From the NCBI GenBank assembly GCA_021604505.1, contig BQJC01000004.1, positions 88,117 to 152,116 of the forward strand: 64,000 nt of DNA. Direction: 5' to 3'. The notes under the pieces were generated by a model. That model was not told the DNA's origin. It did no database searches and worked only from the letters and a program-made list of their open reading frames with translations. The position numbers were made by a program, and so were the translations under genes. Position 1 is the first letter of the stretch, and every line of letters begins with the position of its first letter. Positions 28,310 to 43,300 of the stretch are shown in pieces. The DNA is from Nitrospinaceae bacterium. GTDB taxonomy: Bacteria; Nitrospinota; Nitrospinia; Nitrospinales; VA-1.

Positions 28310-30097
28310 TCACGCTGGAGACAGGATGTTGAGGCGTTCCCGAATATCTTCTCTTTGATGATGCCCAAGATACAGCAGGCCGTCTGACAGGGAGTAGTTG
28401 TCCGGGAAGGTCATCACTTCCCGTCCCAGTTTTTCGATGATTTCCTGATACAGTTCCGTGGCTTGTTCCGCCGTCATGCCCACCGTCCCTTCATAGGAAT
28501 ACCCCAGGCTCAAATCCTGATCCGGCGGCGTGTAGATTTTGGTGATATGCCATTCGGCGGGATTCTTTTCGAGGGGTGTGCCTTTTTCCAGGTCGAATTG
28601 CGAGGCGATGCAGGAAAAACCCGGCGAATCGAGCAGTCTCTGATTGTCGAGCACAAAGTTGACGGAATCCATGACTTCTTCCCGCGTCTCAGTGGGAAAC
28701 CCGCAGATCAGGTAAAAATGCATGGCGATGCCGATGCGCAGACATTCTTCCACCGTTTTGTCGACGACCTCCAGTTCAACCCCTTTTTTCATGGAATCGA
28801 GAACGCGCTGGTTGTAGGATTCCAAACCGAAAATCAGTTTCCGGCATCCCGAACGGTAGAGCAGTTCCATCCGGTTTTCCTTCAAGAGACTCTTCTCAAA
28901 CTTCAACTCACCGGTCCACTGAATGTCCAGCTCCTGATCGACGATTTTTCCGGCGAAGGTTTTCATGAAGTTGATGGGCAACGCCTCGTCGGTGAAGAAG
29001 AAATAATTGCAGTTGTATTTCTCCTTGAGGTTTCTCACGTCGTTGACCACATTTTCCGCATAGCGCACGTGAAAATCCATATGATCGAAAGGAATCGAAC
29101 AAAAAGCGCACCGCTCCCAGTAGCAACCGCGTGACCCCATGATCGGCAGAACGCGCTCCGGCGACAAATAAAGATCCAGAGGCAGGCCGTCAAAATCCGG
29201 CGTGGGAAGCGCATTCAGCTCTTCCTTGGCGAAAGGACGGTTGACCTGCACCTTGCCTTCCACTTCATAAGCCAGATTCGGCACCTTGGTAAGATCCTTG
29301 CCGCCTCGCAATTCCTGCACCAGACGTAGGAGGGGCGTCTCCCCTTCGTGCACGATGAAACTGTCGATAAACTTAAAGAGAGGCGAACCGTTTTTTTCCA
29401 GCCGGTCCACCAGCTTGGTGAACACACTGCCGCCGACCGTGATATGAATGTCCTTGCGGTGTTTCTTGACCAGGTGCGCCAGCGTCAATCCAGGGATGAT
29501 CTGCTCAACCGAGGTGATGGAAATTCCCAGGATGTCGATGTCCTTTTCCAGAATCGACGGCAGATACCATCGCTCATAAAGATCGTAGAAATAATTCTCT
29601 TCCGGGTGGTTGAACGAATCGATGATCTCCACAGAAGAATACGGCGTGAACCGCAACTGACTGCCAATGACGGTCAACTGCGATGGGTAATAAGGCGACA
29701 GGATATTGTCCAGCCAGACATCGATGATCTTGAGGCTTTCCATATACCGTTCCAGATCGTAAAAATCCTCCGAGCGCAGAGATTGCTTCGCCGCGTCTAT
29801 CTGATCTTTCAGTGATGGAATGATCTCTTCCGCCTCCAGCAGTTTGGCGTACTTCTCCTGCTCAAATTTATTGCGGTTGGAATTCGCTCTCAGTTCGTTG
29901 AGCTCGCGAATGATACGCTCGTACAACGGCTTGGTTTTCTCCCAGGTGCACAAATCGTCCAGCAGTTCGATCGCCAGATCGCGCTGAGCGACATCGTGGA
30001 TGCCGTTTTTTGCAAGAAACGCCTTGAGGCTGGGGAGACTGAGATAAGGCTGAGAAGGATGCCAGGAAGATGGAAACACCAGATAAATCATCAGCAA
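28310..30097 (-). CDS. B12-binding-domain radical SAM protein (class B-like)
   Basis: 595 aa. N-terminal region typical of the B12-binding-domain group (SQPYLSLPSLKAFLAKNG). Cysteine cluster GSRGCYWERCAFCS. TIM-barrel-length core. Confidence 0.7.
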   Translation of the reverse strand: MLMIYLVFPSSWHPSQPYLSLPSLKAFLAKNGIHDVAQRDLAIELLDDLCTWEKTKPLYERIIRELNELRANSNRNKFEQEKYAKLLEAEEIIPSLKDQIDAAKQSLRSEDFYDLERYMESLKIIDVWLDNILSPYYPSQLTVIGSQLRFTPYSSVEIIDSFNHPEENYFYDLYERWYLPSILEKDIDILGISITSVEQIIPGLTLAHLVKKHRKDIHITVGGSVFTKLVDRLEKNGSPLFKFIDSFIVHEGETPLLRLVQELRGGKDLTKVPNLAYEVEGKVQVNRPFAKEELNALPTPDFDGLPLDLYLSPERVLPIMGSRGCYWERCAFCSIPFDHMDFHVRYAENVVNDVRNLKEKYNCNYFFFTDEALPINFMKTFAGKIVDQELDIQWTGELKFEKSLLKENRMELLYRSGCRKLIFGLESYNQRVLDSMKKGVELEVVDKTVEECLRIGIAMHFYLICGFPTETREEVMDSVNFVLDNQRLLDSPGFSCIASQFDLEKGTPLEKNPAEWHITKIYTPPDQDLSLGYSYEGTVGMTAEQATELYQEIIEKLGREVMTFPDNYSLSDGLLYLGHHQREDIRERLNILSPA

Positions 30098-30294: not shown

Positions 30295-30615
30295 TTACGC
30301 TGGCTTGGGAGCCATAAACACCAGCATCACCAATTTTGCGTTCGTATGGTTGACCACACCGTGGTCCTGTCCACTGGGAGCCAGAGTGATTTCATCAGCG
30401 GTCATTTCGCGTTCCACAGTGCCGACGGTCACCTTGCCTTTTCCTTCCAGAACGTAGTAAACCTTGTCCGGCCCATCATGAGAGTGAATTTTCTGGGACT
30501 GACCCGGTTCAAAACAATATACATCACAAAAGAAATTGTCCGTATCGAAAAGAGGGACCTTTTTTAACTTTTCGGGGCTGAAAGCCACCCGATCTCTAAC
30601 TTTAACAACGTTCAT
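30295..30615 (-). CDS. Cupin domain protein
   Basis: 106 aa. Cupin motif 1 GQSQKIHSHDGPDKVYYVLEG and motif 2 region APSGQDHGVVN. Confidence 0.75.
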   Translation of the reverse strand: MNVVKVRDRVAFSPEKLKKVPLFDTDNFFCDVYCFEPGQSQKIHSHDGPDKVYYVLEGKGKVTVGTVEREMTADEITLAPSGQDHGVVNHTNAKLVMLVFMAPKPA

Positions 30616-30937: not shown

Positions 30938-31015
30938 CGGGACGTAGCGCAGCCTGGTTAGCGTACTTGACTGGGGGTCAAGTGGTCGGAGGTTCAAATC
31001 CTCTCGTCCCGACCA
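30938..31015 (+). tRNA. tRNA-Pro (anticodon GGG), CCA encoded
   Basis: Manual fold. Acceptor CGGGACG/CGTCCCG; D arm GCGC-AGCCTGGTTA-GCGT; anticodon arm CTTGA-CTGGGGG-TCAAG; variable loop TGGTC; T arm GGAGG-TTCAAAT-CCTCT; discriminator A plus CCA. Confidence 0.9.
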
Positions 31016-31022
31016 TATAAAA

Positions 31023-31064
31023 CAATGGGTTATCAGTTCATGCTGATGACCCATTGTCGTTTAT
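31023..31064. terminator. Hairpin terminator between tRNA-Pro and the convergent operon (potentially bidirectional)
   Basis: 14-bp stem CAATGGGTTATCAG / CTGATGACCCATTG (one G-U pair), a 6-nt loop, then a TCGTTTAT tail. Confidence 0.55.
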
Positions 31065-31096: not shown

Positions 31097-31867
31097 CTAC
31101 AAGGTTTTTTCAAACAAATTGAGCCCCGTTTTAAAAGCTTCCCGCAGTTGGCTCAATCGTCTGGGGTCTACTGTTAAGCTTTTTGGGTCGAACCAGGGGT
31201 TGGAGAGATATAATTTTCGATTCATTTCAATTTGAATCCAGGGTACCGGATCGTTTCCGTATTTTCTGGTGATATACCCCCCCGCGAAAGGCTCGTTGAT
31301 CGTCACGTCCCCTGCTTTTAAGTGAAAACCTTCCTGAAGGCATTCAGCTAATTTTTGCACCCACTCATCGGAACAACTTTTTCCATAATTATTTCCCAGG
31401 CAAATAAGAGGACGCTCTTTCCCACTATCGGGAGCGATGGGAGGGCCAACAGGCTCCATGGTATGACAATCCAGGCCTAATTTGATCCCGGAATGGGTGT
31501 TCAACAACTCCCGGATTTTTTTGTGGTAAGGGTCGTGGTATTTTTGAATCAGTTCCTCACCGATTGTTTCGTCGAGCAACAACCCAGGAGAATAGATCGG
31601 CTGGCCATGGCAGGTTTTGGTTTTGACAATGCCGTCCGGGTTTTTGGGAGGCCGGTCTGAAGTTTCACGGTTCAAATCGACAAACGCTCTGGCGATGTCC
31701 GTTTCGATAAAAGCCTGAACTTCATCGCGGATCCCGTAGATCTCCCGGGTGAAGGCATCCCCATCCTCAAACAAATCCTTCTGCGTGATACAAACCCGAT
31801 CGGAAATTTCTTGGGGAGTTTTTGTTCCCCCATGGGGAATAGAGATCAGAAATGGAAGTTTAGCCAT
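31097..31867 (-). CDS. N-formylglutamate amidohydrolase family protein
   Basis: ISIPHGGTKTP near the N-terminus, plus GLDCHTM and PWIQIEMNR motifs of the FGase family. 256 aa. Confidence 0.75.
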   Translation of the reverse strand: MAKLPFLISIPHGGTKTPQEISDRVCITQKDLFEDGDAFTREIYGIRDEVQAFIETDIARAFVDLNRETSDRPPKNPDGIVKTKTCHGQPIYSPGLLLDETIGEELIQKYHDPYHKKIRELLNTHSGIKLGLDCHTMEPVGPPIAPDSGKERPLICLGNNYGKSCSDEWVQKLAECLQEGFHLKAGDVTINEPFAGGYITRKYGNDPVPWIQIEMNRKLYLSNPWFDPKSLTVDPRRLSQLREAFKTGLNLFEKTL

Positions 31868-31870
31868 TAT

Positions 31871-33502
31871 TCATGGCCCTTGCGCCGTACCGTCACGCCT
31901 GATTTCGGCAACGCCTTGAAACTGATCTTTGGTCTGGCATTTGAGGACGGCATGAATGGCGCCAAGATAAAAAGAGTAGGCTTCCCTGCGATCAATTTTA
32001 TATCCCACCTGTTCAAGATACCGGATGACCTCGGCGTCAAATCTCTCCGCTTCAATACTCAATTTTCCTCCCACGGTGCAGTGAAACCTGGGTTTTTCCA
32101 TGGCTTCGTCAATGGAAAGATCGGAGTCCACAATATGGGAAAGAAACTGACTCATCGATGAAAAGATACGCTCACTTCCAGGGCTTCCCGCAACCAGCCA
32201 GGGTTTATCCTTGTAAAAGGCGATTATAGGAGCGACCGAACTCCAGGGAATGGCGTTGGGTCTTAAGTAGTAGGGATGAGAAGGGTCAAGCGTGTCGAGA
32301 GAGCTCATATAATTGTTGTATAGAAAGCCCAGGCCCCGTCCCGCTACTTTTGCTCCATAAACCAATTCAATAGACTGAGTAATACCGATGGCGTTGCCTT
32401 CCTTATCCATGACCGAAAGATGCGTGGTGTCATTGGCCAAAGAAAATAATTCCGTCAAGGGAAGAGAGGGGTCGATTCCATCTCGAATGGTGGAAGAAAG
32501 ATTTCTGGCAAACGACTGACTCAGAATTTTTCTATCATCCGGTAATTGCGGATAGATGTTTGGATCGAAAGGACGTTCTTTATGATTCAACAGCCCCTTT
32601 CTAAAAATCTCCGCCATGAAATGATAGGCCTGCGCGCTTCTACTCTTCAATACTTTGGAAGGCAGGTTTTTTAAAATTTGCAAAACCAGTAACAACGTTC
32701 TACCTGCCCCGGGAGGCGGGCTGGTAAACACCTTGATCTTCCGGTAATTTCTGCTGATCGGTTTTCTTTCAACCGGCCAGGGAATCAAGGCCAGGTCTTC
32801 AGCGCGTAAAAACCCTTCGTGAAACCGCATATCCTCATCAATGCGTTTCGCAATATCCCCCGTGTAAAATGATTTCACCCCGTGCCGGGACAGATGCTCC
32901 AATAACTGCGCCAGGTCTTCCTGTACAAATCGCTCTCCCACAGGATAAGGGGTTTGACCGTCTTTTAAAAAGTATTTGGCTCCCGACAGAGAATCCATGA
33001 GCAGGAAGTTGTCAGTTTCCCGGATTTGCAGATCATGCTGAAGTTGGGTGATCGCGTACCCTTCACGGGCGATACGAATCGCCGGCTCCAAAATTTGTGA
33101 CCATTCCAGTTTTCCATAACGAAAATTCAAATGGCCAAGAACAGCAGGGGTGCTGGGAACGGTCGTGGCCTTATAACCTCGGAACCTTTGGGTCTTCTTA
33201 TCAATGCGGTCCATATGAGCAAGAGAAGGAACGCGGCTCGAGCCATCCAAAGCAATGGTCCTTTCATCGATATGCAAAATAGCCATGGACTGGCCTCCAA
33301 GGCCGCTGGCTTGCGGCTCACACACGCTCAATGCAAAAGCGGCGGCGCAGGCGGCATCAATGGCATTGCCGCCTCTGCGAAGCATTTCCACCCCCGCTTC
33401 CGTCGCTTCAGGAAAAGCGGTGGAGACCATGCCTCCTGACGAGGTGGCGCATTTTCCATCTTCCGTGGGAGAAAAACTACTTTCAATATTATCCAGTTTC
33501 AT
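31871..33502 (-). CDS. ggt: Gamma-glutamyltransferase family protein with no signal peptide
   Basis: Autoprocessing/nucleophile motif NDTTHLSVMDKEGNAIGITQSIE, and GSPGSERI. The N-terminus has no hydrophobic leader. Confidence 0.85.
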   Translation of the reverse strand: MKLDNIESSFSPTEDGKCATSSGGMVSTAFPEATEAGVEMLRRGGNAIDAACAAAFALSVCEPQASGLGGQSMAILHIDERTIALDGSSRVPSLAHMDRIDKKTQRFRGYKATTVPSTPAVLGHLNFRYGKLEWSQILEPAIRIAREGYAITQLQHDLQIRETDNFLLMDSLSGAKYFLKDGQTPYPVGERFVQEDLAQLLEHLSRHGVKSFYTGDIAKRIDEDMRFHEGFLRAEDLALIPWPVERKPISRNYRKIKVFTSPPPGAGRTLLLVLQILKNLPSKVLKSRSAQAYHFMAEIFRKGLLNHKERPFDPNIYPQLPDDRKILSQSFARNLSSTIRDGIDPSLPLTELFSLANDTTHLSVMDKEGNAIGITQSIELVYGAKVAGRGLGFLYNNYMSSLDTLDPSHPYYLRPNAIPWSSVAPIIAFYKDKPWLVAGSPGSERIFSSMSQFLSHIVDSDLSIDEAMEKPRFHCTVGGKLSIEAERFDAEVIRYLEQVGYKIDRREAYSFYLGAIHAVLKCQTKDQFQGVAEIRRDGTAQGP

Positions 33503-35691
33503 AAATCGAAATTCTTGGAAGATTGATAAATGAGGTAAGCAAGAAGAACGCCCCGGTCAATGAGGCTGTCGCGAACGACGTGCTCGTTATTGGAGCCATA
33601 AGCGCCTGTAACCGGACCAAATCCATCAAGAGCCGGAACACCCTCTGCTACATTTGCCATATAGGAAACCATACTGTTCTCAGATTTTTTAACCCTGACT
33701 TCCAGTAACTTAGCCATTTTTTTGATCTTCTCGAAAAACTTAAGATTTTTTTCGGTTTCCAAAAAGGGCTTTCTTTGCGCTCCCTTGGTGACATGGACCT
33801 TGATGTTATCTTGCGGTTTGGCGGCAAATATCAGATTGACCTGCTCCCCCAGCCTTTTTCTCTGGTCTAACGTACGATAGCGGATGACAAATGATAATGC
33901 GGCATGATAGGTGGGCTGGTCTTCCATTCCCTTCGTCTGCAATCCTGTTATGGTGGTAAAAATTCCATCCTGCTCGGAATTTAATTTCCTCAACGCGTTA
34001 ATTTTTTGAGACGAAAAAAGTATGGGGTCGCTGACCTCAGAGGAAGATTTTAAACCCTGCTTATTCTGTGTCCGGTTGATTTCAATCTCATACCTTAAAG
34101 TCCCGGAGCAGGATGTCATGATCTCGCCACTCAAACCCGCGCCCCTCAATCCAACGACATAATTCGATTTTTTAGAAAGCTCCTCAATGACCGGCTTCGA
34201 GGACCGCTCGCCCATCGATTCATCCGTAATCAACAGGATTCCACACTTGACCCTTTTTAAGGTCCGCGTGTACCGCAATGCTTTAATAGCGCCCAACAAA
34301 ACGGCAATGCCGCCTTTTCCTCTGGCCACTCCGGTTCCGTATAAACGACCCTTTTCCTCATTGAAAGAACTGTAATCTTCAAAATCCACCGGGTTGTCCA
34401 GATTGCCAACCACAAGAATATCGTTGGTCTCTTCCATGTGATTGGTAAGATACAGAATATTTCCGAATTCCGCCCGTGAATACACTTGACGATGAAATCC
34501 AATAGCACTCAATTTATTGGCAACCCAATGGCCCAGGGAATTGATGCCCTCGATATTTTGCACAAAGGAGTTAATATCCACCATCTTCTCAAGGTCATCT
34601 TCCATGGTTTGAAGGTTTCCACGCAGATGACTTCTCAAGCGAATCCGAAGCGGGTCCTTTTTGGTTTTCGTTTCAGGCTCTTCAACAGCTATTTGATCTA
34701 TTTGCTGACCGCCAAAATAACGTTCCACCGCCACATCCAGCATTCTGTTCACCATGGAATCATAAGTGTAGCCTGCTACCTTGGCGGCATGAACATAAGA
34801 GCCGGTCCGGCCAAGACTGGCCATCGAGTTCAACTCCAGAATATATAAGTTTCCGTCCTTATCCATGCGAAAATCCACCCGGCAAAAATCATAAATCCCC
34901 AGAACACGGAATGTCTCCTTGGTCAAACGGCGAATTTCTTCACTCACTTTTTCATCGATCTGGGATGGGCATATTTTCCCCTTAGGTTTTTTAAGCTTGT
35001 CTTCAAGGCTTTGAATCGCGTCCGGGTCCCCTTCGAGATCAATTTCCAATACAGGGAAAATCTCAGGATCCCGGTTGCCCAATAATCCCACCGCAAACTC
35101 CCTTCCAGGAATGAACTGTTCGACTAAGATAGGCTGTTTAAACTGCTCTACCAGATCGGCGATAGCCGTCTTTAAAGAAGGCAGGTCGTGGATGACCTGG
35201 ATGCCCATAGAAACCGCTTCCATCTTTGGCTTGGTGATCACGGGAAACGGCAAATCATCGGGGATCTGTTCGGCGTCATAAAAAACCCAGTACGGCGCTG
35301 TGGGGAGTCCTGCCGCGTGGATCATTACTTTCGTGGTGACTTTATCAAGCGCCACCCCATGACCCGCGGGACTCGACCCCACATAGGGGACCCCAAGCAT
35401 TTCAAGCAGGGAGGGGATATGGGTATAACGGCTGACTCCCTGAATACCGTATGCCATGTTAAAAACCATGCCGGGTTGTTCCCCTTGAACGACCCGCGGC
35501 ATAAAATCCTGCAGTTGCTCGATGACATTGATGTTTCCATCAATGACGCGTACGTTGTGGCCGCCTTTTTCTAAGGCGGATGCAACCATCTCAACTGTTT
35601 TCGGGTTATAAGTTTCCTGATTCTGCATTCCAAAAACGTTGAGGACGCCTTCATTATCTTTAGGTTTATTGTAAATGACCGCGACTTTCAT
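33499..35691 (-). CDS. Fusion protein: D-Ala-D-Ala-ligase-like ATP-grasp domain (N) plus M20 peptidase-like domain (C)
   Basis: N-terminal half: MKVAVIYN..., ITKPKMEAVSMGI, CRVDFRMDKDGNLYILELNS (ATP-grasp). C-terminal half aligns by eye to the M20 motifs, e.g. YGTGVARGKGG and ILLITDESMG. 4-nt overlap with ggt. Confidence 0.75.
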   Translation of the reverse strand: MKVAVIYNKPKDNEGVLNVFGMQNQETYNPKTVEMVASALEKGGHNVRVIDGNINVIEQLQDFMPRVVQGEQPGMVFNMAYGIQGVSRYTHIPSLLEMLGVPYVGSSPAGHGVALDKVTTKVMIHAAGLPTAPYWVFYDAEQIPDDLPFPVITKPKMEAVSMGIQVIHDLPSLKTAIADLVEQFKQPILVEQFIPGREFAVGLLGNRDPEIFPVLEIDLEGDPDAIQSLEDKLKKPKGKICPSQIDEKVSEEIRRLTKETFRVLGIYDFCRVDFRMDKDGNLYILELNSMASLGRTGSYVHAAKVAGYTYDSMVNRMLDVAVERYFGGQQIDQIAVEEPETKTKKDPLRIRLRSHLRGNLQTMEDDLEKMVDINSFVQNIEGINSLGHWVANKLSAIGFHRQVYSRAEFGNILYLTNHMEETNDILVVGNLDNPVDFEDYSSFNEEKGRLYGTGVARGKGGIAVLLGAIKALRYTRTLKRVKCGILLITDESMGERSSKPVIEELSKKSNYVVGLRGAGLSGEIMTSCSGTLRYEIEINRTQNKQGLKSSSEVSDPILFSSQKINALRKLNSEQDGIFTTITGLQTKGMEDQPTYHAALSFVIRYRTLDQRKRLGEQVNLIFAAKPQDNIKVHVTKGAQRKPFLETEKNLKFFEKIKKMAKLLEVRVKKSENSMVSYMANVAEGVPALDGFGPVTGAYGSNNEHVVRDSLIDRGVLLAYLIYQSSKNFDL

Positions 35692-35708
35692 CTAGTTTTC
35701 CTCGAATA

Positions 35709-36437
35709 TTAAAAGGTCCATTCCATCACTTCCAAATGCTCTCTAAGCTGGGACACTGTTTTGAATTTTTTCACAATCATACTCTTTTTAAGGCCGCAAC
35801 AGATATATTTAATTGCCTGCGGATGCTTGGAATAATTTTTGCTTCCGCCTAAAACTTCATAGAAAATATTAATCAATCCAATCAAATCATCCCTAAGAAA
35901 CTCAGGTCGAGCGGCTCCATAGTGAAATAAATCTAAAAGCTTGAGTTCGAAGTTGAGACCAAATTTATTGACAATAATATTATCGCTGTGCAAATCGCCG
36001 TGATATTCATTTCTAAGATGAATTTCCTCAATTCCCTTTGCCAAAGCATGCAAAAGATGCAGGGCTTTATAGGGGTCCAGTTTCTTCCCCGGAAAATTAA
36101 GAAGAAATTCCGACAACAGAACTCCTTCCACATATTCGGAAACTAAAACAGTGACGGGAAATTTATGATAGATGATTTCCTCTTGAGTGTGATACTGGAT
36201 GAGCAAAGAGCATTGGCGTAGTTTGTGTAATTTCTGGGCATATCTTTTTGCGGATTTACCCCGCAGGTTCCTTTGCGGATAAAATAATTTTGCCGCTTTT
36301 TCAATTCCAGTTTTAACTTCATAAATTTTATAAACTTCTCCCTCCCAGCCAGAACCCAACCTGGAAAGGACCTTGTATTTTCCAGCAATGGACTTGCCAG
36401 CAGGCAAATTGAATTCTGTTATTTTTGAAGGGTTCAT
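35709..36437 (-). CDS. Minimal protein-kinase-like protein (242 aa)
   Basis: Gly-rich loop LGSGWEGEVY, AAKLF (VAIK-like Lys), catalytic loop YHGDLHSDNIIV, and LLDLF (DFG-like). First gene of the operon. Confidence 0.65.
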   Translation of the reverse strand: MNPSKITEFNLPAGKSIAGKYKVLSRLGSGWEGEVYKIYEVKTGIEKAAKLFYPQRNLRGKSAKRYAQKLHKLRQCSLLIQYHTQEEIIYHKFPVTVLVSEYVEGVLLSEFLLNFPGKKLDPYKALHLLHALAKGIEEIHLRNEYHGDLHSDNIIVNKFGLNFELKLLDLFHYGAARPEFLRDDLIGLINIFYEVLGGSKNYSKHPQAIKYICCGLKKSMIVKKFKTVSQLREHLEVMEWTF

Positions 36438-36802: not shown

Positions 36803-37306
36803 ATGATAAGGGCCGCTTTAAGAAAAAAAATGAAAAAAATTAAACTTCCATTGGTTATTTTACTTTGCGGGCTATCCGTTTCTTTAGCCGTTGCAGGCAC
36901 AGATGAAGCACAAACCGCTCCCACTCTCCCCACTTTAAAGCCAACCGTTTCCTTAAACACCCCTAAGGAAATGCAAAAGAATCCCGATAGGCCGAAAATA
37001 AGCCAGGATTTGCTGAACCTCTACAAAACCTATCAAGCACAGAATGACCGCTCAAACGGCAGGAAAACAAACGGAAGCCTGGAACAGCCAATGCTTCCGG
37101 TTTCTGACGGGTTTGTGACCATCGACGCCATCGCGTCGAATGATACCAAGGCCCTGAAAACCGATATGGAGACATTGGGTTTAAAAAACTCCGCCAGCTT
37201 TGGGCGTGTGGTTTCCGGCCTTTTCCCCATTTCCCAAATCTCTAAGCTCTCCGACTTGAAGAGCCTGAAATATGTCAGAGCTTCTTCAGCAATAACCCAC
37301 AACTGA
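36803..37306 (+). CDS. Secreted stand-alone homolog of the giant protease's N-terminal prodomain
   Basis: Signal peptide. Residues about 95-167 (VSDGFVTIDAIASND...LGLKNSASFGRVVSGLFPIS) align at about 45-50% identity with residues about 93-160 of the giant protein (VSDSYVVIDAIAVSD...IGLKNAGIFGKMVSGLLPIS). Confidence 0.7.
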   Translation: MIRAALRKKMKKIKLPLVILLCGLSVSLAVAGTDEAQTAPTLPTLKPTVSLNTPKEMQKNPDRPKISQDLLNLYKTYQAQNDRSNGRKTNGSLEQPMLPVSDGFVTIDAIASNDTKALKTDMETLGLKNSASFGRVVSGLFPISQISKLSDLKSLKYVRASSAITHN

Positions 37307-37338: not shown

Positions 37339-40300
37339 TCAACAAGGGTTGGGAACGTATTCCATATGCAGAAGAGGCGCGGCGCTGGGAACCCCGTTGA
37401 AAGATTCAGCGGCTCGTTCTCCGGTTCCACTGATAATGACCGCCAGCGAATTGCCGCTCACCCATCCCGGCAGGTTAATGATTTCCTGAATGACGGAAGC
37501 GATATCCGGAGTTCGCTGATCCAACCCGGCTTCTCCCACCGAAGTCCACGAAGGAACCCCAGGCCAGCCCACCGAGGCTCCCGTCAGCGGCCGGTCGGTG
37601 ATGTTGTTGCTTGCACTGGTAAACGTCGCGGCGTTGGCCGCAGCCTGCCCGCGCACCGTGAGCGACGTGGTCCCGGAATGGCTTTCATCCGCCTGAAACT
37701 GAACATAGGCATTGGTGATCGTCGAACAACCGGGGACACTCACCCCGTTAAAGCGCAGGCCAATGGTCTGGTTGTCTCCGGCATCAAAGGTCATTTCGAG
37801 ATCGGAGCTGGTCAGCGACATACTTCCCGAGGCCCGTTCTTCCGCATCGTCCGTACTCGATGAAACACGGATGTCGAGAATCGTAGAAGCTGAAGGTGGA
37901 CCCGTGGAGACAACGATTTTGACACTGCTGCCTGCCGCAGCACTGGCTCCGCCTATCGGATTCTGGCTGATCACATCTCCCGCAGAAACCGTAGCGCTGC
38001 TCTGCGTTGAAACCGTTCCAACATCCAGTCCCGCACCGACAATCGCCGCTTCCGCAGCAGCTTGCGTCAGACCCACAACGTCAGGGACCGACACCAATAC
38101 CGGTGGCGTGCTTGAAAATTCCACATACAATAAAGGTGCGGCGCCGGGAACCCCGTTGAAGGATTCAGCAACCCGCTCTCCGGTCCCGCTGATAATGACC
38201 GCCAGCGAATTGCCACTCACCCATCCCGGCAGGTTGATGATTTCCTGAATGACCGATGCTATATCCGGTGTCCGCTGATTTGGCCCGGCTTCTCCCACCG
38301 AATTCCATGCAGGAACAGAAGGCCAGGCCACCGACGCTCCCGTTAACGACCGGTCGGTGATGTTGTTGGTTTCACTGGTAAACGTCGCGGCGTTGGCCGC
38401 CGCCTGCCCGCGAACCGTGAGCGACGTGGACCCGGAATGGCTTTCATCCGCCTGAAACTGAACATAGGCTTTGGTGATCGTTGCACCTGCGGGAATATTC
38501 ACCCCGTTAAAGCGCATACCGATGGTCTGGTCGCCTCCGGCATCAAAGGTCAGCTCGAGATCGGAGCTGGTCAGCGACATATCCCCAGAGGCCCGTTCTT
38601 CCGCATCGTCCGAACCCGATGCAACCCGAATATCGAGAACCGTTGTCCCCGAACTCTCGGTCACAGTGATGCTCAACTCGTCGAAGACAGTGAACTCGCC
38701 GTCAAAGGCAGTCAGGCGCAAAACGTAGGTCCCCGGCAAATTGAAACTGACGGTCGTGTCTTCCGCATTGGCGTTGGCAAAGGTCGCCGTTCCGCCCGCA
38801 GGCCCGCTTTCCTGATTCCAGGTAATCGTCGGAGTCGCCTGCACCAGGCCGTCGTCGGTGACCGTTCCATTCAGTGTCGCACTTGCCGGAAGAACAATCG
38901 ACTGGTCCGGACCGGCGTTGACCGTGGGGGGAGTGTTGGACGGCGGGGTGACAACCTCCACGGTGATCGTGTCCTGTCCCGGCAGGCCGCCGCTGTCCGT
39001 CACTGAAGCGGTGATGGTGTGTATTCCTGTCGATAACCCAGCCGTTGCAAAGGAAACCGCCTGCACTCCACCGTTGAGAACCCCATCCAGGTTGGAAGTC
39101 CACGTGAGATTCGACGACAGGTTACCGTCCTCAAAATCATTGGCCGTGCCGCTGAAAGTGATGCTGGCCCCCGCGTTGAAAGTCAAACCGTCCGCTGGTG
39201 CGTTGATCCCCACCGTGGGGGGCTGGTTGCCCTGACTGGAACCGTATTCCACATGCAGAAGAGGCGCGGCGCTCGGAACCCCGTTGAAAGATTCAGCGGC
39301 TCGCTCTCCGGCCCCGCTGATAATGACCGCCAACGAATTGCCACTCGCCCATCCCGGCAGGTTGATGATTTCCTGAATGACCGATGCTATATCCGGAGTC
39401 CGCTGATCGACACCTGCTTCTCCCACCGAATTCCATGCAGGAACCCCAGGCCAGGCCACCGACGCTCCTGTCAGGGGCCGGTCGGTGATGTTGTTGGTTT
39501 CACTGGTAAACGTCGCGGCGTTCGCCGCAGCCTGCCCGCGCACCGTCAGCGACGTGGACCCGGAATGGCTTTCATCCGCCTGGAACTGAACATAGGCTTT
39601 GGTGATCGTTGCGCCTGCGGGAATATTCACCCCGTTAAAGCGCATGCCGATGGTCTGATCGCCTCCGGCATCAAAGGTCAGCTCGAGATCGGAGCTGGTC
39701 AAAGACAGATCCCCTGAGGACCGTTCTTCCGCATCGTCCGAACCCGATGCAACCCGAATATCGAGCACATCCTGGCTGGGACTTTCAGTTGCCGTGATGC
39801 TCAACTCGTCAAAGATAGTGAACTCGCCGTCGAAGGCAGTCAGGCGTAAAACGTAGGTCCCCGGCAAATTGAAACTGACGGTCGTGTCTTCCGCATTGGC
39901 GTTGGCAAAGCTCGCCGTTCCACCTGCAGGACCGCTTTCCTGATTCCAGGTAATCGCCGGAGTCGCCTGCACCAGGCCGTCGTCGGTGACCGTTCCATTC
40001 AGCGTCGCACCCGCCGGAAGAACAATCGACTGGTCCGGACCGGCGTTGACCGTTGGCGGAGCATTGACCGCGACGGCGGGGTTGACGGTGACGGTCAACT
40101 CATCGAAAGCCGTCAACTCGCCATCAAACGCGGTCAATCGGAGGACATACGTACCAGCTTCGGAGAAACTGACGGTCGTGTCCTCAGCATTGAAATTGGC
40201 AAAGGTAGCCGTTCCACCCGCAGGCCCGCTCTGCTGGCTCCAGGTAATCGTCGGAGTTGTCTGTATCTGGCCGTCGTCGGTAACGGTTCCATCTAAAATT

Positions 40301-43300
40301 GCGTTAGCCGGAAGGGTGATCGTCTGGTCAGGCCCTGCGTCTGGCACCGGAGCACTATTGGCATTGCCACCAATATTACACGTGTCTGAACCTGTATCCG
40401 TAAATTCAAACCCCGCCTCAGGAAGGAATTCCCAATCATAGCCATTGTCTCTTAATGTTAATTTGATAATACCCAGTGAGGAATTGTATTTAACCTCGCT
40501 ATTGGGGATTGGATTGTCAAAATTGTAAAGGGATCTCCCGCCGGTACCGACGACAAAGGCCCGGATGCCGTTCGGGTCAAGATTGCTGTTTGAATCCTGT
40601 TTCGCAAACCGCTCGTAAGTATGATCGTGACCTGCAATAACAATATCCGCCCCGGCGATGTATAGTTCTTGCCAAAATTCAATCGTTCGCGTTGAACTTC
40701 CATGACGTCCTGAGCTGTAGTACGGACGGTGCCAATAAGCAAGAATGCAGGATCCGGAATGCGCCGCTAGATCTTGTTTCAACCACTCCACTTGTGCGGA
40801 ACCCGCCTCAAAATCAACTTCCGAATCGAGTGAAATGATGTGCCAGTTTCCGAGGTCGTAGCTGTAAAAAAGTTGTTGTGTATTTCCAGGAAAGACGCAA
40901 TCATTGGCTGTAGGACAGAAATAATCCAGATAATCCGCCGCACCTGCAACCCCGTAGTCATGGTTGCCGGGCGAGGGAAAGGTTCGCGAACGGTGTCTGC
41001 CCCACGTCGGGTCGTATTTCTGCAGAAAATCAGCTGCTGTGCCGTTGTCATAGGCATTGTCCCCTGCAGTGAATACAATGGCGCCAGGATCATTGGCAAC
41101 CACGTTATCGATGATTTGTGCGGTTGCCTCGGGCCCCCCTGTTATGGAACCATCATCGGCAATATCCCCCGCGCCGACCAGCGTATAAGAAGTAATTTGA
41201 CCGGGATCAAGCGTTGTCGCGCTTGCGGGAAGACTTGCTTCTGAAAGATTATTCGAACTATCCCGTGCAACAACTTCATACGTATAACTCGTAATCGTCG
41301 AAAGGTCCGTATCAAGAAACGAAGTTGCCGATGTTGAACCTATAAATGCGCTGGGCGTGCAACCGAAACCTTGACAGCGAAACACATCGTATCCAGCAAC
41401 CGCAATGTTGTCCGTTGAAGCACTCCATGTAAGGTTGATGCGGGAGGATAAAACACCCGTTCCCGTTAACCCCGTGGGAACGGAGGGGGGTTCTGAATCA
41501 GTCACTGCTAAAAATTCCACATGCAATAAAGGTGCGGCGCCGGGAACCCCGTTGAAGGATTCAGCCGCTCGCTCCCCGGTCCCGCTGATAATGACCGCCA
41601 GAGAATTGCCACTCGCCCATCCCGGCAGGTTGATGATTTCCTGAATGACCGATGCTATATCCGGAGTCCGCTGATTTGGCCCGGCTTCTCCCACCGAATT
41701 CCATGCAGGAACCCCAGGCCAGGCCACCGACGCTCCCGTTAACGACCGGTCGGTGATGTTGTTGGTTTGACTGGTAAACGTCGCGGCGTTGGTCGCAGCC
41801 TGCCCGCGAACCGTGAGCGACGTGGACCCGGAATGGCTTTCATCCGCCTGAAACTGAACATAGGCTTTGGTGATCGTTGCGCCTGCGGGAATATTCACCC
41901 CGTTAAAGCGCATGCCGATGGTCTGGTCACCTCCGGCATCAAAGGTCAGCTCGAGATCGGAGCTGGTCAGTGACATATCCCCTGAGGCCCGTTCTTCCGC
42001 ATCGTCCGAACCCGATGCAACCCGAATATCGAGCACATCCTGGCTGGGACTTTCAGTTAAAGTGATGCTCAAATCGTCGAAGACAGAGAACTCGCCATCG
42101 AAGGCAGTCAGGCGCAAAACGTAGGTCCCCGGCAAATTGAAACTGACGGTCGTGTCTTCCGCATTGGCGTTGGCAAAGGTCGCCGTTCCACCCGCAGGCC
42201 CGCTTTCCAAATTCCAGGTAATCGTCGGAGTCGCCTGCACCAGACCGTCGTCGGTGACCGTTCCATTCAGCGTCGCACCCGCCGGAAGAACAATCGACTG
42301 GTCCGGACCGGCGTTGACCGTGGGGGGAGTGTTGACTGGCGGCGGACCAGAACTTTGGCTAAAAAAGATGAAGGCCGAGCCGGAATCGTTTTCGCCGTTG
42401 TTATCGTCTTGATAAGCTCCCACGATGACATCGTCGATGCCGTCGCCATTGTAATCGCCTGCTGACGATATAGAAAAACCAAACGAATCATTTTCGTTCT
42501 GACCATTCAAAATCACGTCCGAATCTGCGTCGGCCCTTAATGTCAACTGAGCTCCAGCGGGGTTGCGGCCGAAAAAGATGAAAGCGCTGCCAGAGTTACA
42601 AAGTTCGCTTAGGCAATCCGGGTTGTTATCATCGGAAGGTACTCCGACGATAACGTCGCCTAATCCGTCGCCGTTGAAGTCACCCGCCAATGACACCCTA
42701 GAACCAAAGTTGTTCTGTGCGTTCTGTCCATTGAGGATCACATCCGCGTCAGCATCCGCTCGTAAAAACAACTGAACACCTTCCGGATCACGGCCGAAAA
42801 AAATAAAGGCACTACCGGAATTGATTTTACCGTTATTATCGTCATTATGAGCGCCAACGATAATATCATCTACACCGTCGCCGTTGAAGTCGCCCGCTGA
42901 GGACACTGAAGACCCGAAAAAGTCATCTGTACTCTGGCCCCACAAGATCATGTTCGCGTGGCTATTCGCCCCTAGGGTCAATTGTCCAACCGGTTGGCGG
43001 CCGAAAAAGATAAAGGCGCTGCCAGATTGAGTTTGGCCGTTATTACTGGCAAAAGCGGCTCCGACGATGACGTCGTCCTTTCCATCGCCATTGAAATCAC
43101 CCGCCGGGGATACAGATCCGCCAAACCTACCTAATAGATTTTGACCATTGATGATCACATCGACATCGGCATCCGCACTTAAAGTCAACTGAACACCCGC
43201 ACCCGGATCACGGCCCAAAAATATGGAGGCACTCCCGTTATTAGCTAACCCGATACTATCGTCCAATGGAACTCCGACGATGACATCACTCTTGCCGTCA

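Follow-up and report, generated by a model that had tools for sequence, protein, structure and literature searches.

Organization of the locus

The locus raises the question of whether a predicted amide ligase, two putative amide hydrolases and a small kinase-fold protein, encoded side by side, form one functional unit, and on what compound such a unit might act. The genes lie in a 64,000-nucleotide stretch of a Nitrospinaceae MAG, here called the window. An earlier note on this DNA had described four minus-strand genes with spacings of 17 nt, a 4-nt overlap and 3 nt, and this layout is confirmed by the open reading frames (Table 1) and by direct reading of the junctions. The kinase TAA is followed by the spacer tattcGAGGAAAactag and the fusion ATG. 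The fusion ends and GGT begins within one ATGA, and ata lies between the GGT TGA and the FGase ATG. The four domain assignments made at that time are all correct as well (Pfam Pkinase, Dala_Dala_lig_C with Peptidase_M20, G_glu_transpept and FGase).

Table 1. Features of the four-gene locus and their positions in the window.
Feature	Position	Strand	Basis or remark
Kinase-fold ORF, 242 aa	35709-36437	minus	ORF listing
ATP-grasp::M20 fusion ORF, 730 aa	33499-35691	minus	ORF listing
ATP-grasp (Ddl-like) ligase domain, aa 1 to ~330 of the fusion	34702-35691	minus	PF07478, 3e-31
Degenerate M20 (CPG2-like) domain, aa ~346-730 of the fusion	33502-34656	minus	PF01546, 9e-13
GGT-like ORF, 543 aa; leaderless GGT-family Ntn hydrolase	31871-33502	minus	ORF listing; PF01019 G_glu_transpept, 1e-109, full length
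FGase-like ORF, 256 aa; FGase-family zinc amidohydrolase (N-formylglutamate amidohydrolase-like)	31097-31867	minus	ORF listing; PF05013, 5e-52, profile positions 2-219 of 219
Hairpin and U-tract 3' of the FGase stop	31016-31057	minus	Likely intrinsic terminator, 3' end of the unit

The hairpin at the 3' end has a value of -26.5 kcal/mol (z = -3.84), and none of 200 shuffled sequences folds as well. It is abutted by a convergent tRNA-Pro(GGG) at 30938-31015. Because consensus scans for promoters and terminators inside the four-gene unit gave results no better than those of shuffled sequence, it is the spacing from which we infer co-transcription of the four genes. Neighbouring genes in the window encode a giant surface protein, a cupin and a radical SAM enzyme.

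Conservation of the cassette

The genes of the fusion, the GGT-like and the FGase-like protein stay together in 48 of the 55 evaluable loci. A cassette-type GGT gene directly follows the fusion in 38 loci, lies downstream on the same strand with genes in between in six and is found elsewhere in the locus in four; the FGase gene then follows in nearly all of them. The fusion has no cassette-type GGT or FGase gene nearby in seven loci. The hosts are Nitrospinaceae, Nitrospina watsonii, Nitrosomonas aestuarii, Ca. Magnetomorum HK-1, clade L083 and Nitrosopumilaceae. Some of them are not strictly marine (Nitrosarchaeum, an Antarctic lake, wastewater). The identity matrices of the three proteins group the taxa alike, in keeping with three genes that are inherited and transferred together.

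The small kinase-fold gene behaves differently. The Pfam match (Pkinase, 8e-12) covers only profile positions 1-142 of 263. The Hanks-type catalytic set is present and invariant in 16 family members: the Gly-rich loop (G28-x-G30), the beta3 Lys (Lys50), the HxD...N motif (H146-G-D148...N153) and the metal-binding Asp (Asp169). The protein lacks a complete C-lobe (activation segment/APE, alphaF-alphaI) and ends 73 residues past the DLF motif. It belongs to a family with more than 3,400 homologs; these are ~243 aa long, share 60-70% identity between phyla and have varied, unrelated neighbours elsewhere. Among the cassette loci compared, adjacency of kinase and fusion is limited to a few Nitrospinaceae (the window, L004, L023, L024). 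The kinase is reduced to a ~70-aa remnant in the close relative L014 (91% identity) and is absent from every non-Nitrospinota cassette. Its inclusion in the functional unit, as proposed earlier, is not supported, given the few adjacent loci, the remnant and the large family with unrelated neighbours. The kinase is probably co-transcribed with the cassette in the window. It is a local, lineage-specific accessory neighbour outside the conserved cassette, with no demonstrated link to its function.

The conserved unit is thus made of three genes, not four: co-conservation, the check attached to the four-gene proposal, holds for the fusion, GGT and FGase genes across phyla and across the divide between bacteria and archaea, and fails for the kinase. 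Literature searches aimed at this cassette, which is common to marine nitrite- and ammonia-oxidizing bacteria and ammonia-oxidizing archaea, found no published description, in agreement with the earlier view that it is not a pathway that can be named.

The ATP-grasp::M20 fusion protein

The N-terminal half of the fusion resembles Ddl structures (Foldseek TM ~0.8). Seventeen orthologs were aligned to the validated E. coli DdlB for comparison of the D-Ala-binding residues. DdlB K97, K144, E180, E187, R255, D257, E270 and N272 are kept in the window protein as K117, K154, E191, E198, R271, D273, E286 and N288, whereas E15, H63, S150, Y216, S281 and L282 are not. In all 17 orthologs, Glu15 is replaced by Q/K, Ser150 by V/T, Tyr216 by a gap, His63 by Y and Ser281/Leu282 by G/S. 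The domain therefore shares with Ddl/Van ligases the fold, the ATP/Mg2+ site and the catalytic Arg/Asp/Glu/Asn, and differs from them in the Glu15/Ser150/Tyr216 D-Ala-binding triad and the omega-loop, which are not conserved. The fusion also scores below every NCBIfam Ddl cut-off (best model NF002378, 152.2 bits versus 243) and, unlike those ligases, is found in archaea, which have no murein. Judged by these residues, the ATP-grasp domain is predicted to be active, with a non-Ddl substrate pocket. Its closest relatives, at 41-42% identity, carry a fused PF14402 7TM_transglut domain. In Pseudomonas, this domain serves as the membrane module of RloB, encoded in an operon that has been connected with hypo-osmotic tolerance and the cleavage of polyglutamate (PMC11957051).

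The C-terminal half is an M20-family domain (PF01546, 49 bits versus a cut-off of 24.6), whose nearest relatives are carboxypeptidase G2 (CPG2) and "glutamate carboxypeptidase". CPG2 is the top match both in sequence (1cg2, phmmer 1.7e-09) and in fold (1cg2 and 6xj5, Foldseek E 2e-26 to 3.5e-27, target TM 0.72-0.74), the dimerization (lid) domain included. The pLDDT of the fusion model is mostly 80-95 over aa 350-730. Unlike in CPG2, the domain is joined to a ligase and its five zinc ligands are replaced in the window protein (H112 by N430, D141 by R457, E176 by S492, E200 by R516 and H385 by G699). It should therefore be unable to act as a metallopeptidase and is, by its residues, a pseudo-peptidase without metal ligands. 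The zinc site is incomplete in every ortholog examined. The archaeal and Magnetomorum domains keep H112, have Glu at the position of D141 and miss E176 and E200.

The GGT-like and FGase-like hydrolases

The GGT-like protein starts with MKLDNIESSFSPTEDGKCATSSGGMVS, and its residue 21 aligns to residue 46 of the E. coli GGT precursor, which indicates that it has no signal peptide. The presumed cytoplasmic location in the earlier note is supported by this start and alignment. The score against the TIGR00066 equivalog model (341.5 bits) is below the cut-off of 357.85. Thr359 (codon 32426-32428) aligns to E. coli Thr391, is invariant in the orthologs and is the predicted autoprocessing nucleophile.

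Compared with E. coli GGT, T391, S462, S463 and R513 are kept, and R114->S, T409->S, N411->E, Q430->Y, D433->S and G484->S are changed. The Gly483-Gly484 oxyanion pair thus becomes G-S, and the lid loop is 9 aa shorter. This signature is common to the bacterial and archaeal cassette orthologs, except for position 433, which is Ala in most archaeal ones, and single-locus exceptions (Magnetomorum, L020). Arg114, Asn411, Gln430, Asp433 and Gly483-Gly484 have roles in gamma-glutamyl recognition. When Asp433 is lost from a canonical GGT, transpeptidation is abolished and acyl groups lacking a free alpha-amine are favoured; enzymes without a lid loop have an open cleft that accepts poly-gamma-glutamate (PMC8062742). 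From the sequence alignment, the cassette pocket is proposed to be non-canonical, such that a free alpha-amino group may no longer be required.

Leaderless GGTs in which Arg114 is replaced by Ser form a known intracellular group (PMC8062742). Members with Ser at this position still hydrolyse ordinary gamma-glutamyl substrates, which counts against the function proposed below. With the extremophile, archaeal and YwrD-type intracellular GGTs, the window protein shares the missing signal peptide, the missing lid loop and the Arg114->Ser change (PMC8062742). It differs from them in the absence of Asp433, in Gly484->Ser and in its setting in a conserved cassette, and by sequence it is nearer to E. 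coli GGT (7.5e-65) than to Thermoplasma 2i3o (4.7e-31).

In the FGase-like protein, the motifs PH12xG, ARxxVDxNR, YxPYH, DCH135xM, PFxGGxIT and QxE214 are conserved, with key residues invariant across 11-12 orthologs, and the ortholog profile matches PDB 2q7s at 2.7e-13. An identity as HutG ortholog was rejected: the TIGR02017 (HutG equivalog) score of 97.1 bits is under the cut-off of 278.75, and the annotated neighbours, both in the window and in related loci, include no hut genes.

Ion-channel context

In many archaeal loci, the cassette is interleaved with genes for ion transport. The order in L048 is fusion, CNNM, CorA, K+ channel (with a TTIGYGD filter), GGT and FGase, all six co-directional; the first three genes overlap by 4 nt and the CorA-to-channel gap is 10 nt. 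In L087, the order is fusion, CorA, K+ channel, GGT and FGase. Such nesting or adjacency of CNNM, CorA or K+ channel genes occurs in ~16 archaeal loci. The N. watsonii clade has a divergent MscS gene upstream of the cassette. In Melioribacteraceae (L035), the fusion is surrounded by an MscS gene, a CorA gene and further transporter-like ORFs, and the place before it, where GGT would be expected, is taken by a class-I GATase/C26 gene. Ion-transport neighbours are absent from about half of the archaeal loci and from the Nitrosomonas and Magnetomorum loci, and no channel or transporter gene adjoins the cassette in the window itself. An osmo-responsive riboswitch was searched for, and none was found. 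The earlier note was silent on this repeated association with cation and mechanosensitive channels, as well as on the zinc-ligand loss of the M20 domain and the non-canonical GGT pocket.

Possible function of the cassette

From the observed gene order, co-conservation, domain identities, kept and lost catalytic residues and channel association, we tentatively propose that the cassette makes and turns over, in the cytoplasm, a gamma-glutamyl or N-acyl-glutamate compound with a link to osmotic and cation homeostasis. The domains all point to glutamate amides, because the kin of the M20 domain are CPG2 and "glutamate carboxypeptidase", the FGase-like protein belongs to the N-formylglutamate amidohydrolase family and the third protein to the GGT family. 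The intact ligase core, the invariant GGT nucleophile and the invariant FGase motifs were also counted for such a compound. In the direction of flux that we infer, the ligase would form an amide bond via an acyl-phosphate, the GGT-like enzyme would hydrolyse the gamma-glutamyl amide and the FGase-like enzyme would cut the remaining N-acyl-glutamate bond. The dead M20 domain, descended from a glutamate carboxypeptidase, might hold the substrate or product by its N-acyl-glutamate end, or scaffold a complex with the translationally coupled GGT. The simplest substrate class to fit all four domains would be gamma-glutamyl-glutamate or a short oligo-gamma-glutamate, with an N-acyl-gamma-glutamyl amide solute as close alternative; the data fit dipeptide, oligomer and N-acyl amide alike. 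We know of no Ddl-clade ATP-grasp enzyme that makes gamma-glutamyl-glutamate. Further points against the proposal are the loci that lack ion-transport neighbours, the window among them, the seven fusions with no cassette-type GGT or FGase gene nearby, the hosts that are not strictly marine and the negative search for an osmo-responsive riboswitch. The cassette may buffer the cytoplasmic glutamate/counter-anion pool during osmotic and K+/Mg2+ shifts. The endometabolomes of a marine ammonia-oxidizing archaeon (AOA) and of N. gracilis are dominated by glutamate (PMC11428151). The earlier suggestion that ligase and hydrolases work as a coupled unit on a gamma-glutamyl or N-acyl-amino-acid compound is supported as an idea.

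The RimK/RimB and RloABC systems of Pseudomonas also encode an ATP-grasp amide ligase together with a hydrolase that undoes its product, in RloABC with a catalytically inactive enzyme-derived partner. For these systems, a link to glutamate/polyglutamate homeostasis has been proposed and a link to osmotic stress is experimental (PMC11957051). By analogy, the cassette might write and erase C-terminal glutamylation of a protein or peptide, the ATP-grasp domain adding glutamates, the dead M20 domain holding the C-terminus and the GGT-like and FGase-like enzymes trimming it. This would be in agreement with the recurrence of pseudo-enzyme, ATP-grasp and peptidase sets in both systems, with the RloB-type 7TM module fused to the closest ATP-grasp relatives and with a dead carboxypeptidase domain as plausible C-terminus binder. 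We nevertheless regard it as distinctly unlikely, since the taxa examined show no conserved gene beside the cassette that could encode a target and the ATP-grasp domain is Ddl-like, not RimK-like (the RimK domain PF08443 is not among the Pfam matches of the fusion at E <= 0.01). The substrates of characterized FGase enzymes are small molecules and not alpha-linked protein tails. The same holds for characterized GGTs, which act on small molecules or poly-gamma-glutamate (PMC8062742). The cassette also differs from both systems in its hydrolases, which are of GGT and FGase type and not retropepsins, no gene of which type occurs in any cassette locus examined, and in the cytoplasmic location of all its parts. 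Its pseudo-enzyme is an M20 domain joined to the ligase, where RloABC has a transglutaminase on a membrane protein. The likeness to RimK/Rlo systems goes no further than function and architecture.

A catabolic or salvage route, by which nitrogen-limited nitrifiers would use imported gamma-glutamyl, N-acyl-glutamate or peptidoglycan peptides, the hydrolases freeing glutamate and the ligase recycling the fragment, appears improbable. Characterized relatives of both hydrolases do release glutamate, the remodelled GGT pocket would suit an N-substituted gamma-glutamyl group such as L-Ala-gamma-D-Glu, and SBP_bac_5 peptide-binding proteins are encoded a few kb from the cassette in L087 and L082. However, the most conserved member is an ATP-consuming ligase translationally coupled to GGT, which is unexpected for pure catabolism, and the consistently linked transporters are cation channels, not peptide transporters.

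The mixture of ATP-grasp, GGT and M20 also mirrors glutathione synthesis and degradation, and in yeast, cytosolic glutathione is cleaved by the Dug2(M20)-Dug3(Ntn) complex, a precedent for the pairing of M20 and Ntn proteins, here encoded by overlapping genes. In a cytoplasmic gamma-glutamyl cycle for a glutathione-like thiol or another gamma-glutamyl tripeptide, the ATP-grasp domain would be the second ligase (compare the C-terminal half of GshF), GGT would serve breakdown and M20 would be a relic of a Cys-Gly dipeptidase. Such a cycle is very improbable: no gamma-glutamylcysteine ligase was found in any cassette locus examined, the M20 domain should be unable to bind metal, the two residues that contact the gamma-glutamyl group of glutathione at its free alpha-amino acid end (Asp433 and Arg114) are replaced, and the channel context has no obvious redox logic. 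The yeast pair differs from the cassette in having no ligase domain and in Dug3, which is a class-II glutamine amidotransferase and not a GGT.

That the four genes are unrelated neighbours from separate pathways (Ddl for the cell wall, GGT for glutathione, HutG for histidine use, a signalling kinase) is barely credible although every protein matches a well-known family and the kinase does behave in this way, since for the three core genes it is contradicted by their co-conservation (co-linear in 38 of the 55 loci, across phyla and two domains), their scores under the Ddl, GGT and HutG equivalog cut-offs, the fusion in murein-less archaea and the lack of hut genes among annotated neighbours.

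For a glutamate compound with an osmotic role, further parallels are found in glutathionylspermidine synthetase/amidase, the cyanophycin enzymes CphA/CphB, the NAGGN genes Ngg/AsnO and the ectoine cluster of N. maritimus, in which synthesis of an amide-linked nitrogen-rich compound is encoded alongside its breakdown. None of them uses a Ddl-like ATP-grasp::dead M20 fusion with GGT and FGase. In the N. maritimus cluster, Widderich et al. reportedly described in 2016 that osmolyte genes of an ammonia-oxidizing archaeon lie beside a mechanosensitive channel gene, mscS.

A wider reading, which we put forward as doubtful, is that marine nitrifiers of two domains (Nitrospinota, marine Nitrosomonas and Nitrosopumilaceae) share, by horizontal transfer, a cassette for a novel glutamate-derived anionic solute or oligo-gamma-glutamate buffer, the archaeal copy of which would be co-expressed with K+/Mg2+ channels. 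Ammonia-oxidizing archaea without ectoine genes have no known osmolyte (PMC11428151). If this reading is true, the cassette would be their missing osmolyte/counter-ion system, and the pseudo-M20 domain would represent a new kind of substrate-holding module for ATP-grasp ligases.

Locus Structure

Four open reading frames (ORFs) lie close together on the minus strand (see the table). They encode a kinase-fold protein (the kinase), a Ddl-like ATP-grasp domain fused to an M20 domain (the fusion), a gamma-glutamyltransferase-family Ntn hydrolase (GGT) and an N-formylglutamate amidohydrolase-like protein (FGase), the last three being called the cassette. The ORF listing and a direct reading of the junctions reproduced the positions and spacings given in the earlier note, and every one of its domain calls was confirmed by Pfam. 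A 17-nt spacer with GAGGAAA ahead of the fusion ATG separates kinase and fusion, the stop of the fusion and the start of GGT overlap as ATGA, and the GGT/FGase junction reads TGA-ata-ATG. Downstream, the unit is closed by a strong hairpin with a U-tract (z = -3.84), adjoined by a convergent tRNA-Pro(GGG); upstream, 365 nt lie between the kinase and the divergent gene. Since scans for promoter and terminator consensus sequences inside the unit scored no better than shuffled sequence, it is the gene spacing alone that points to co-transcription. NPINA01_28360 of a Nitrospinaceae MAG matches the fusion at 100% identity.

Rfam scans for riboswitches in the window region and eight bacterial loci returned only tRNAs and one sub-threshold AdoCbl-II match (E 0.68), which scored 20.3 bits where the gathering score is 36.5. 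Located ~420-500 nt ahead of the kinase start, where it overlaps the divergent orf167, this match is probably due to chance.

Coordinates of the features in the window and in related loci (L0xx)
Feature	Locus	Positions	Strand	Description
Kinase	window	35709-36437	-	242 aa (ORF listing)
Fusion	window	33499-35691	-	730 aa (ORF listing)
GGT	window	31871-33502	-	543 aa (ORF listing)
FGase	window	31097-31867	-	256 aa (ORF listing)
AdoCbl-II-like match	window	36861-36942	-	
Giant protein	window	37339-46170	-	2,943 aa
B12-binding radical SAM protein	window	28310-30097	-	
Small cupin	window	30295-30615	-	adjoins the radical SAM gene
Radical SAM/cupin pair	L080	567-2717		Nitrospina watsonii
Kinase remnant	L014	7768-7974		~70 aa
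Alpha-E-, Anbu/proteasome-, transglutaminase-like ORFs	L014	5179-7750		directly upstream of the fusion
Kinase-family genes	L085, L086, L088, L089	5001 to ~5740		each locus
Truncated fusion homolog	L066	7992-9737		Peptococcia, 581 aa
GGT with signal peptide	L018, L025	6093-7844		same position in both
Stand-alone Ddl-like ATP-grasp and genes following it	L073	8812-11526		

Two other groups of genes flank the unit. A giant protein with an S8 subtilase domain, seven FG-GAP repeats and PKD/K319L, HYR, metallophosphoesterase and PASTA domains separates the cassette from haem-oxygenase-like, formyltransferase and response-regulator genes. In N. watsonii, the formyltransferase and response-regulator genes are found a short way downstream of the cassette, a difference suggestive of an insertion or rearrangement. 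On the other side, a small cupin adjoins a B12-binding radical SAM protein whose best model matches, to RiPP C-methyltransferase and PhpK, stay below the cut-offs; the pair is also found near the N. watsonii cassette. A RiPP link of this pair was rejected, as its synteny does not extend beyond Nitrospinaceae and the tRNA and the terminator lie between it and the cassette.

Conservation and Distribution

By tblastn and from locus gene tables, the window proteins were compared with 89 related loci, of which 55 were evaluable, having a full-length fusion ortholog and sufficient downstream sequence. A cassette-type GGT is situated directly 3' of the fusion in 38 of these 55, downstream on the same strand after intervening genes in six, elsewhere in the locus in four, and is missing in seven. 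FGase follows in nearly all loci having a cassette-type GGT. The conserved unit is a set of three genes (fusion, GGT and FGase) and not of four: co-conservation of the neighbourhood, the check proposed in the earlier note, holds for these three across loci and does not extend to the kinase.

Because the loci were retrieved by matching exact peptide patterns of the Nitrospinaceae query, they give an incomplete view of the taxonomic range, and absence from any genome (e.g., N. maritimus SCM1) cannot be claimed. Fusion identity is 64-91% in Nitrospinaceae, ~70% in Nitrosomonas aestuarii and related marine Nitrosomonas, nested within the Nitrospinaceae range, 58% in N. watsonii, and ~50% in Ca. 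Magnetomorum HK-1 and an unassigned clade. A Melioribacteraceae MAG carries the fusion only (45%). Many Nitrosopumilaceae archaea are also hosts, with identities of 42-47% for the fusion, 57-62% for GGT and 46-49% for FGase. The identity groupings are congruent among the three proteins, consistent with the unit having been inherited and horizontally transferred as a whole, also between domains.

Some loci stand apart. Three that were binned as Planctomycetota, Phycisphaerales and Woeseiaceae (L001, L002, L003) carry a fusion and GGT 90-93% identical to those of the window; they are probably mis-binned Nitrospinaceae contigs, as they come from the same OFTM sample series. The Peptococcia fusion homolog, truncated in its M20 half and adjoining a transposase-like gene, is probably a decaying copy. 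In two Nitrospinales genomes (L018 and L025), a GGT with a signal peptide is located just upstream of a solitary fusion. It keeps Arg114 and Asn411, but Asp433 is replaced by Asn. Its signal peptide and canonical pocket residues are those of an ordinary periplasmic GGT, and it was rejected as a cassette variant.

The Kinase

The kinase, counted in the earlier note as part of the functional unit, is adjacent to the cassette only in the window and in three related loci (L004, L023, L024). It lies several kb away on the opposite strand in two others (L006, L008), and is absent from every non-Nitrospinota cassette. At L014, the closest of the long relatives, where the fusion is 91% identical, it is cut to a remnant and other genes are found upstream; their resemblances, listed in the table, were read from translations by inspection.

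The kinase belongs to a family of more than 3,400 members of ~243 aa, 60-70% identical, spanning Nitrospinota, Gammaproteobacteria, Gemmatimonadota and Omnitrophica. Elsewhere, family members have neighbours without relation to the cassette: the gene immediately before the kinase in two gammaproteobacterial loci encodes a His_Phos_1 phosphatase, TrkA-TrkH lies upstream with one gene between in an Omnitrophica locus, and DUF1611, creatininase and MR_MLE genes are neighbours in Gemmatimonadota. Its catalytic residues are retained, and it is therefore probably an active atypical kinase. At the window locus it is a passenger; on the evidence of adjacency and family neighbours, a role as cassette regulator was rejected as unsupported.

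The Fusion Protein

An AlphaFold model of the fusion, built with 28 homologs (mean pLDDT 79.6), contains two domains connected by a disordered linker (aa 329-344). Compared with solved structures, the N-terminal half of the model resembles Ddl (target TM ~0.8) and the C-terminal half carboxypeptidase G2 (CPG2; E 2e-26 to 3.5e-27, target TM 0.72-0.74). The ATP-grasp residues were read by alignment to E. coli DdlB, the sequence of which was checked against PDB 2dln. The ATP/Mg2+ and catalytic residues are kept, while the D-Ala-binding Glu15/Ser150/Tyr216, His63 and Ser281/Leu282 are lacking and the omega-loop differs. The fusion falls below every Ddl model cut-off. It has invariant motifs of its own, e.g., NMAYGxQGxSRYTHxP, which may line the substrate site.

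In the M20 half, every zinc ligand of CPG2 is replaced (H112 by N430, D141 by R457, E176 by S492, E200 by R516 and H385 by G699). The archaeal and Magnetomorum orthologs retain His112, have Glu for Asp141 and lack Glu176 and Glu200. As read from these alignments, the M20 domain is degenerate throughout the family, a predicted pseudo-peptidase. The full fusion architecture is present in ~20 clusters at the 50% identity level, down to 31% identity.

The nearest ATP-grasp relatives without M20 (proteins P0414, P0409, P0405 and P0424; 41-42% identity) have a PF14402 7TM_transglut membrane module at the N terminus, and in a further relative, P0400, the fusion partner is a radical SAM domain. Behind the stand-alone ATP-grasp of L073, which is 36% identical to the N-terminal half of the fusion, come genes for a GNAT acetyltransferase and a lysine-2,3-aminomutase-like radical SAM enzyme; the group may be a beta-amino-acid solute cluster.

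The GGT-Like and FGase-Like Proteins

GGT has no signal peptide. In an alignment to E. coli GGT (EcGGT), on which the pocket reading is based, it keeps Thr359 (EcGGT Thr391), Ser462/Ser463 and Arg513, and has a lid loop 9 residues shorter. In EcGGT numbering, the family-wide signature consists of R114 to S, T409 to S, N411 to E, Q430 to Y, D433 to S/A and G484 to S; position 433 is variable and single-locus exceptions exist. A group of intracellular GGTs without leader and lid loop and with Ser at 114 is known, and its physiological role has been described as unknown in a review of bacterial GGTs (PMC8062742). Transpeptidation is lost when Asp433 is changed, and acyl groups lacking a free alpha-amine are then favoured; the open cleft of lid-loop-less GGTs accommodates poly-gamma-glutamate (PMC8062742).

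FGase matches PF05013 over its full length, and the family motifs in it are invariant. Its ortholog profile matches 2q7s, a solved N-formylglutamate amidohydrolase; phmmer with the single sequence gave no match in the PDB, and an AlphaFold model from that sequence alone had a mean pLDDT of 32, too low for use. Its score lies well short of the HutG equivalog cut-off, and the annotated neighbours included no hut genes.

Channel and Transporter Context

In ~16 archaeal loci, genes for CNNM, CorA, a K+ channel or a CPA2 antiporter are located beside or inside the cassette. The Nitrosarchaeum locus L048 has six co-directional genes in the order fusion, CNNM/CorC, CorA, K+ channel (TTIGYGD filter), GGT and FGase, with 4-nt overlaps at fusion/CNNM and CNNM/CorA and a 10-nt gap between CorA and the channel. 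The order in L087 is fusion, CorA, K+ channel, GGT and FGase, with gaps of 3-4 nt among CorA, channel and GGT and a 4-nt GGT/FGase overlap; L039, L057 and L065 are arranged similarly. In the N. watsonii clade, a divergent MscS gene lies ~135 nt upstream of the cassette.

The Melioribacteraceae fusion (L035) stands among transporter genes. MscS, CorA and a class-I GATase were confirmed there, and further ORFs resemble, by inspection, a Na+/Ca2+ exchanger, a TrkA-C protein and a cation-chloride cotransporter. The class-I GATase/peptidase-C26 gene is immediately upstream of the fusion, at the expected site of a gamma-glutamyl hydrolase. No such channel or transporter neighbours were found in the window or in the Nitrosomonas and Magnetomorum loci; the association is recurrent, not universal.

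This gene context points to cation and osmotic homeostasis. In Pseudomonas, RloB, which has the 7TM_transglut module, is encoded in an ATP-grasp/peptidase operon with links to polyglutamate cleavage and to tolerance of hypo-osmotic conditions (PMC11957051). Together with the 7TM_transglut-fused relatives of the fusion, this fits the osmotic reading.

Proposed Function

We infer that all four cassette domains descend from enzymes recognising glutamate amides (CPG2-type M20, GGT, FGase and an amide-forming ligase). As a tentative general model, we take the simplest hypothesis that uses all four: a cycle in the cytoplasm whose compound would be gamma-glutamyl-glutamate, a short oligo-gamma-glutamate or an N-acyl-gamma-glutamyl amide. 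The ligase would form the amide bond of the glutamate compound. The dead M20 domain would bind its N-acyl-glutamate end, or serve as the scaffold of a complex with GGT, which is translationally coupled to the fusion. No longer in need of a free alpha-amine, the GGT-like enzyme would cleave the gamma-glutamyl bond, and the FGase-like enzyme the leftover N-acyl-glutamate bond. Joining several glutamates would reduce the number of osmotically active particles while leaving negative charge available for K+/Mg2+, and hydrolysis would restore osmolytes quickly without new nitrogen assimilation. This would be a good fit for energy-limited nitrifiers, and would account for co-expression with channels.

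Glutamylation of protein C-termini by these enzymes is unlikely by comparison. Salvage of peptides is slightly less probable again, and a cycle resembling that of glutathione ranks lower still. That the genes are unrelated neighbours is hardly credible. The remaining probability belongs to functions other than the glutamate cycle and these four.

Each part of the cassette belongs to a known superfamily, yet fails membership of the enzyme that gives it its name: Ddl, active M20, canonical GGT and HutG. The cassette works most like the ligase/hydrolase pairs RimK/RimB, RloABC, glutathionylspermidine synthetase/amidase and cyanophycin synthetase/cyanophycinase, but is a member of none of them. 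The pathway had been called not nameable in the earlier note, and full-text literature searches, with the 2009 Iyer/Aravind amidoligase survey outside their scope, likewise found no published description. The osmoadaptation sections of Nitrospinae genome papers do not mention the cassette genes.

Nitrification in the ocean is carried out by Nitrospina, marine Nitrosomonas and Nitrosopumilus. For the many AOA without ectoine genes, no alternative osmolyte is known, according to a 2024 metabolomics study (PMC11428151). A horizontally shared cassette, interleaved in archaea with K+/Mg2+ channel genes, is a concrete candidate for this nitrifier osmolyte question. Through it, the intracellular, lid-loop-less GGT-like proteins would also gain a physiological role, and it adds a case of a predicted dead peptidase domain recruited by an ATP-grasp ligase.
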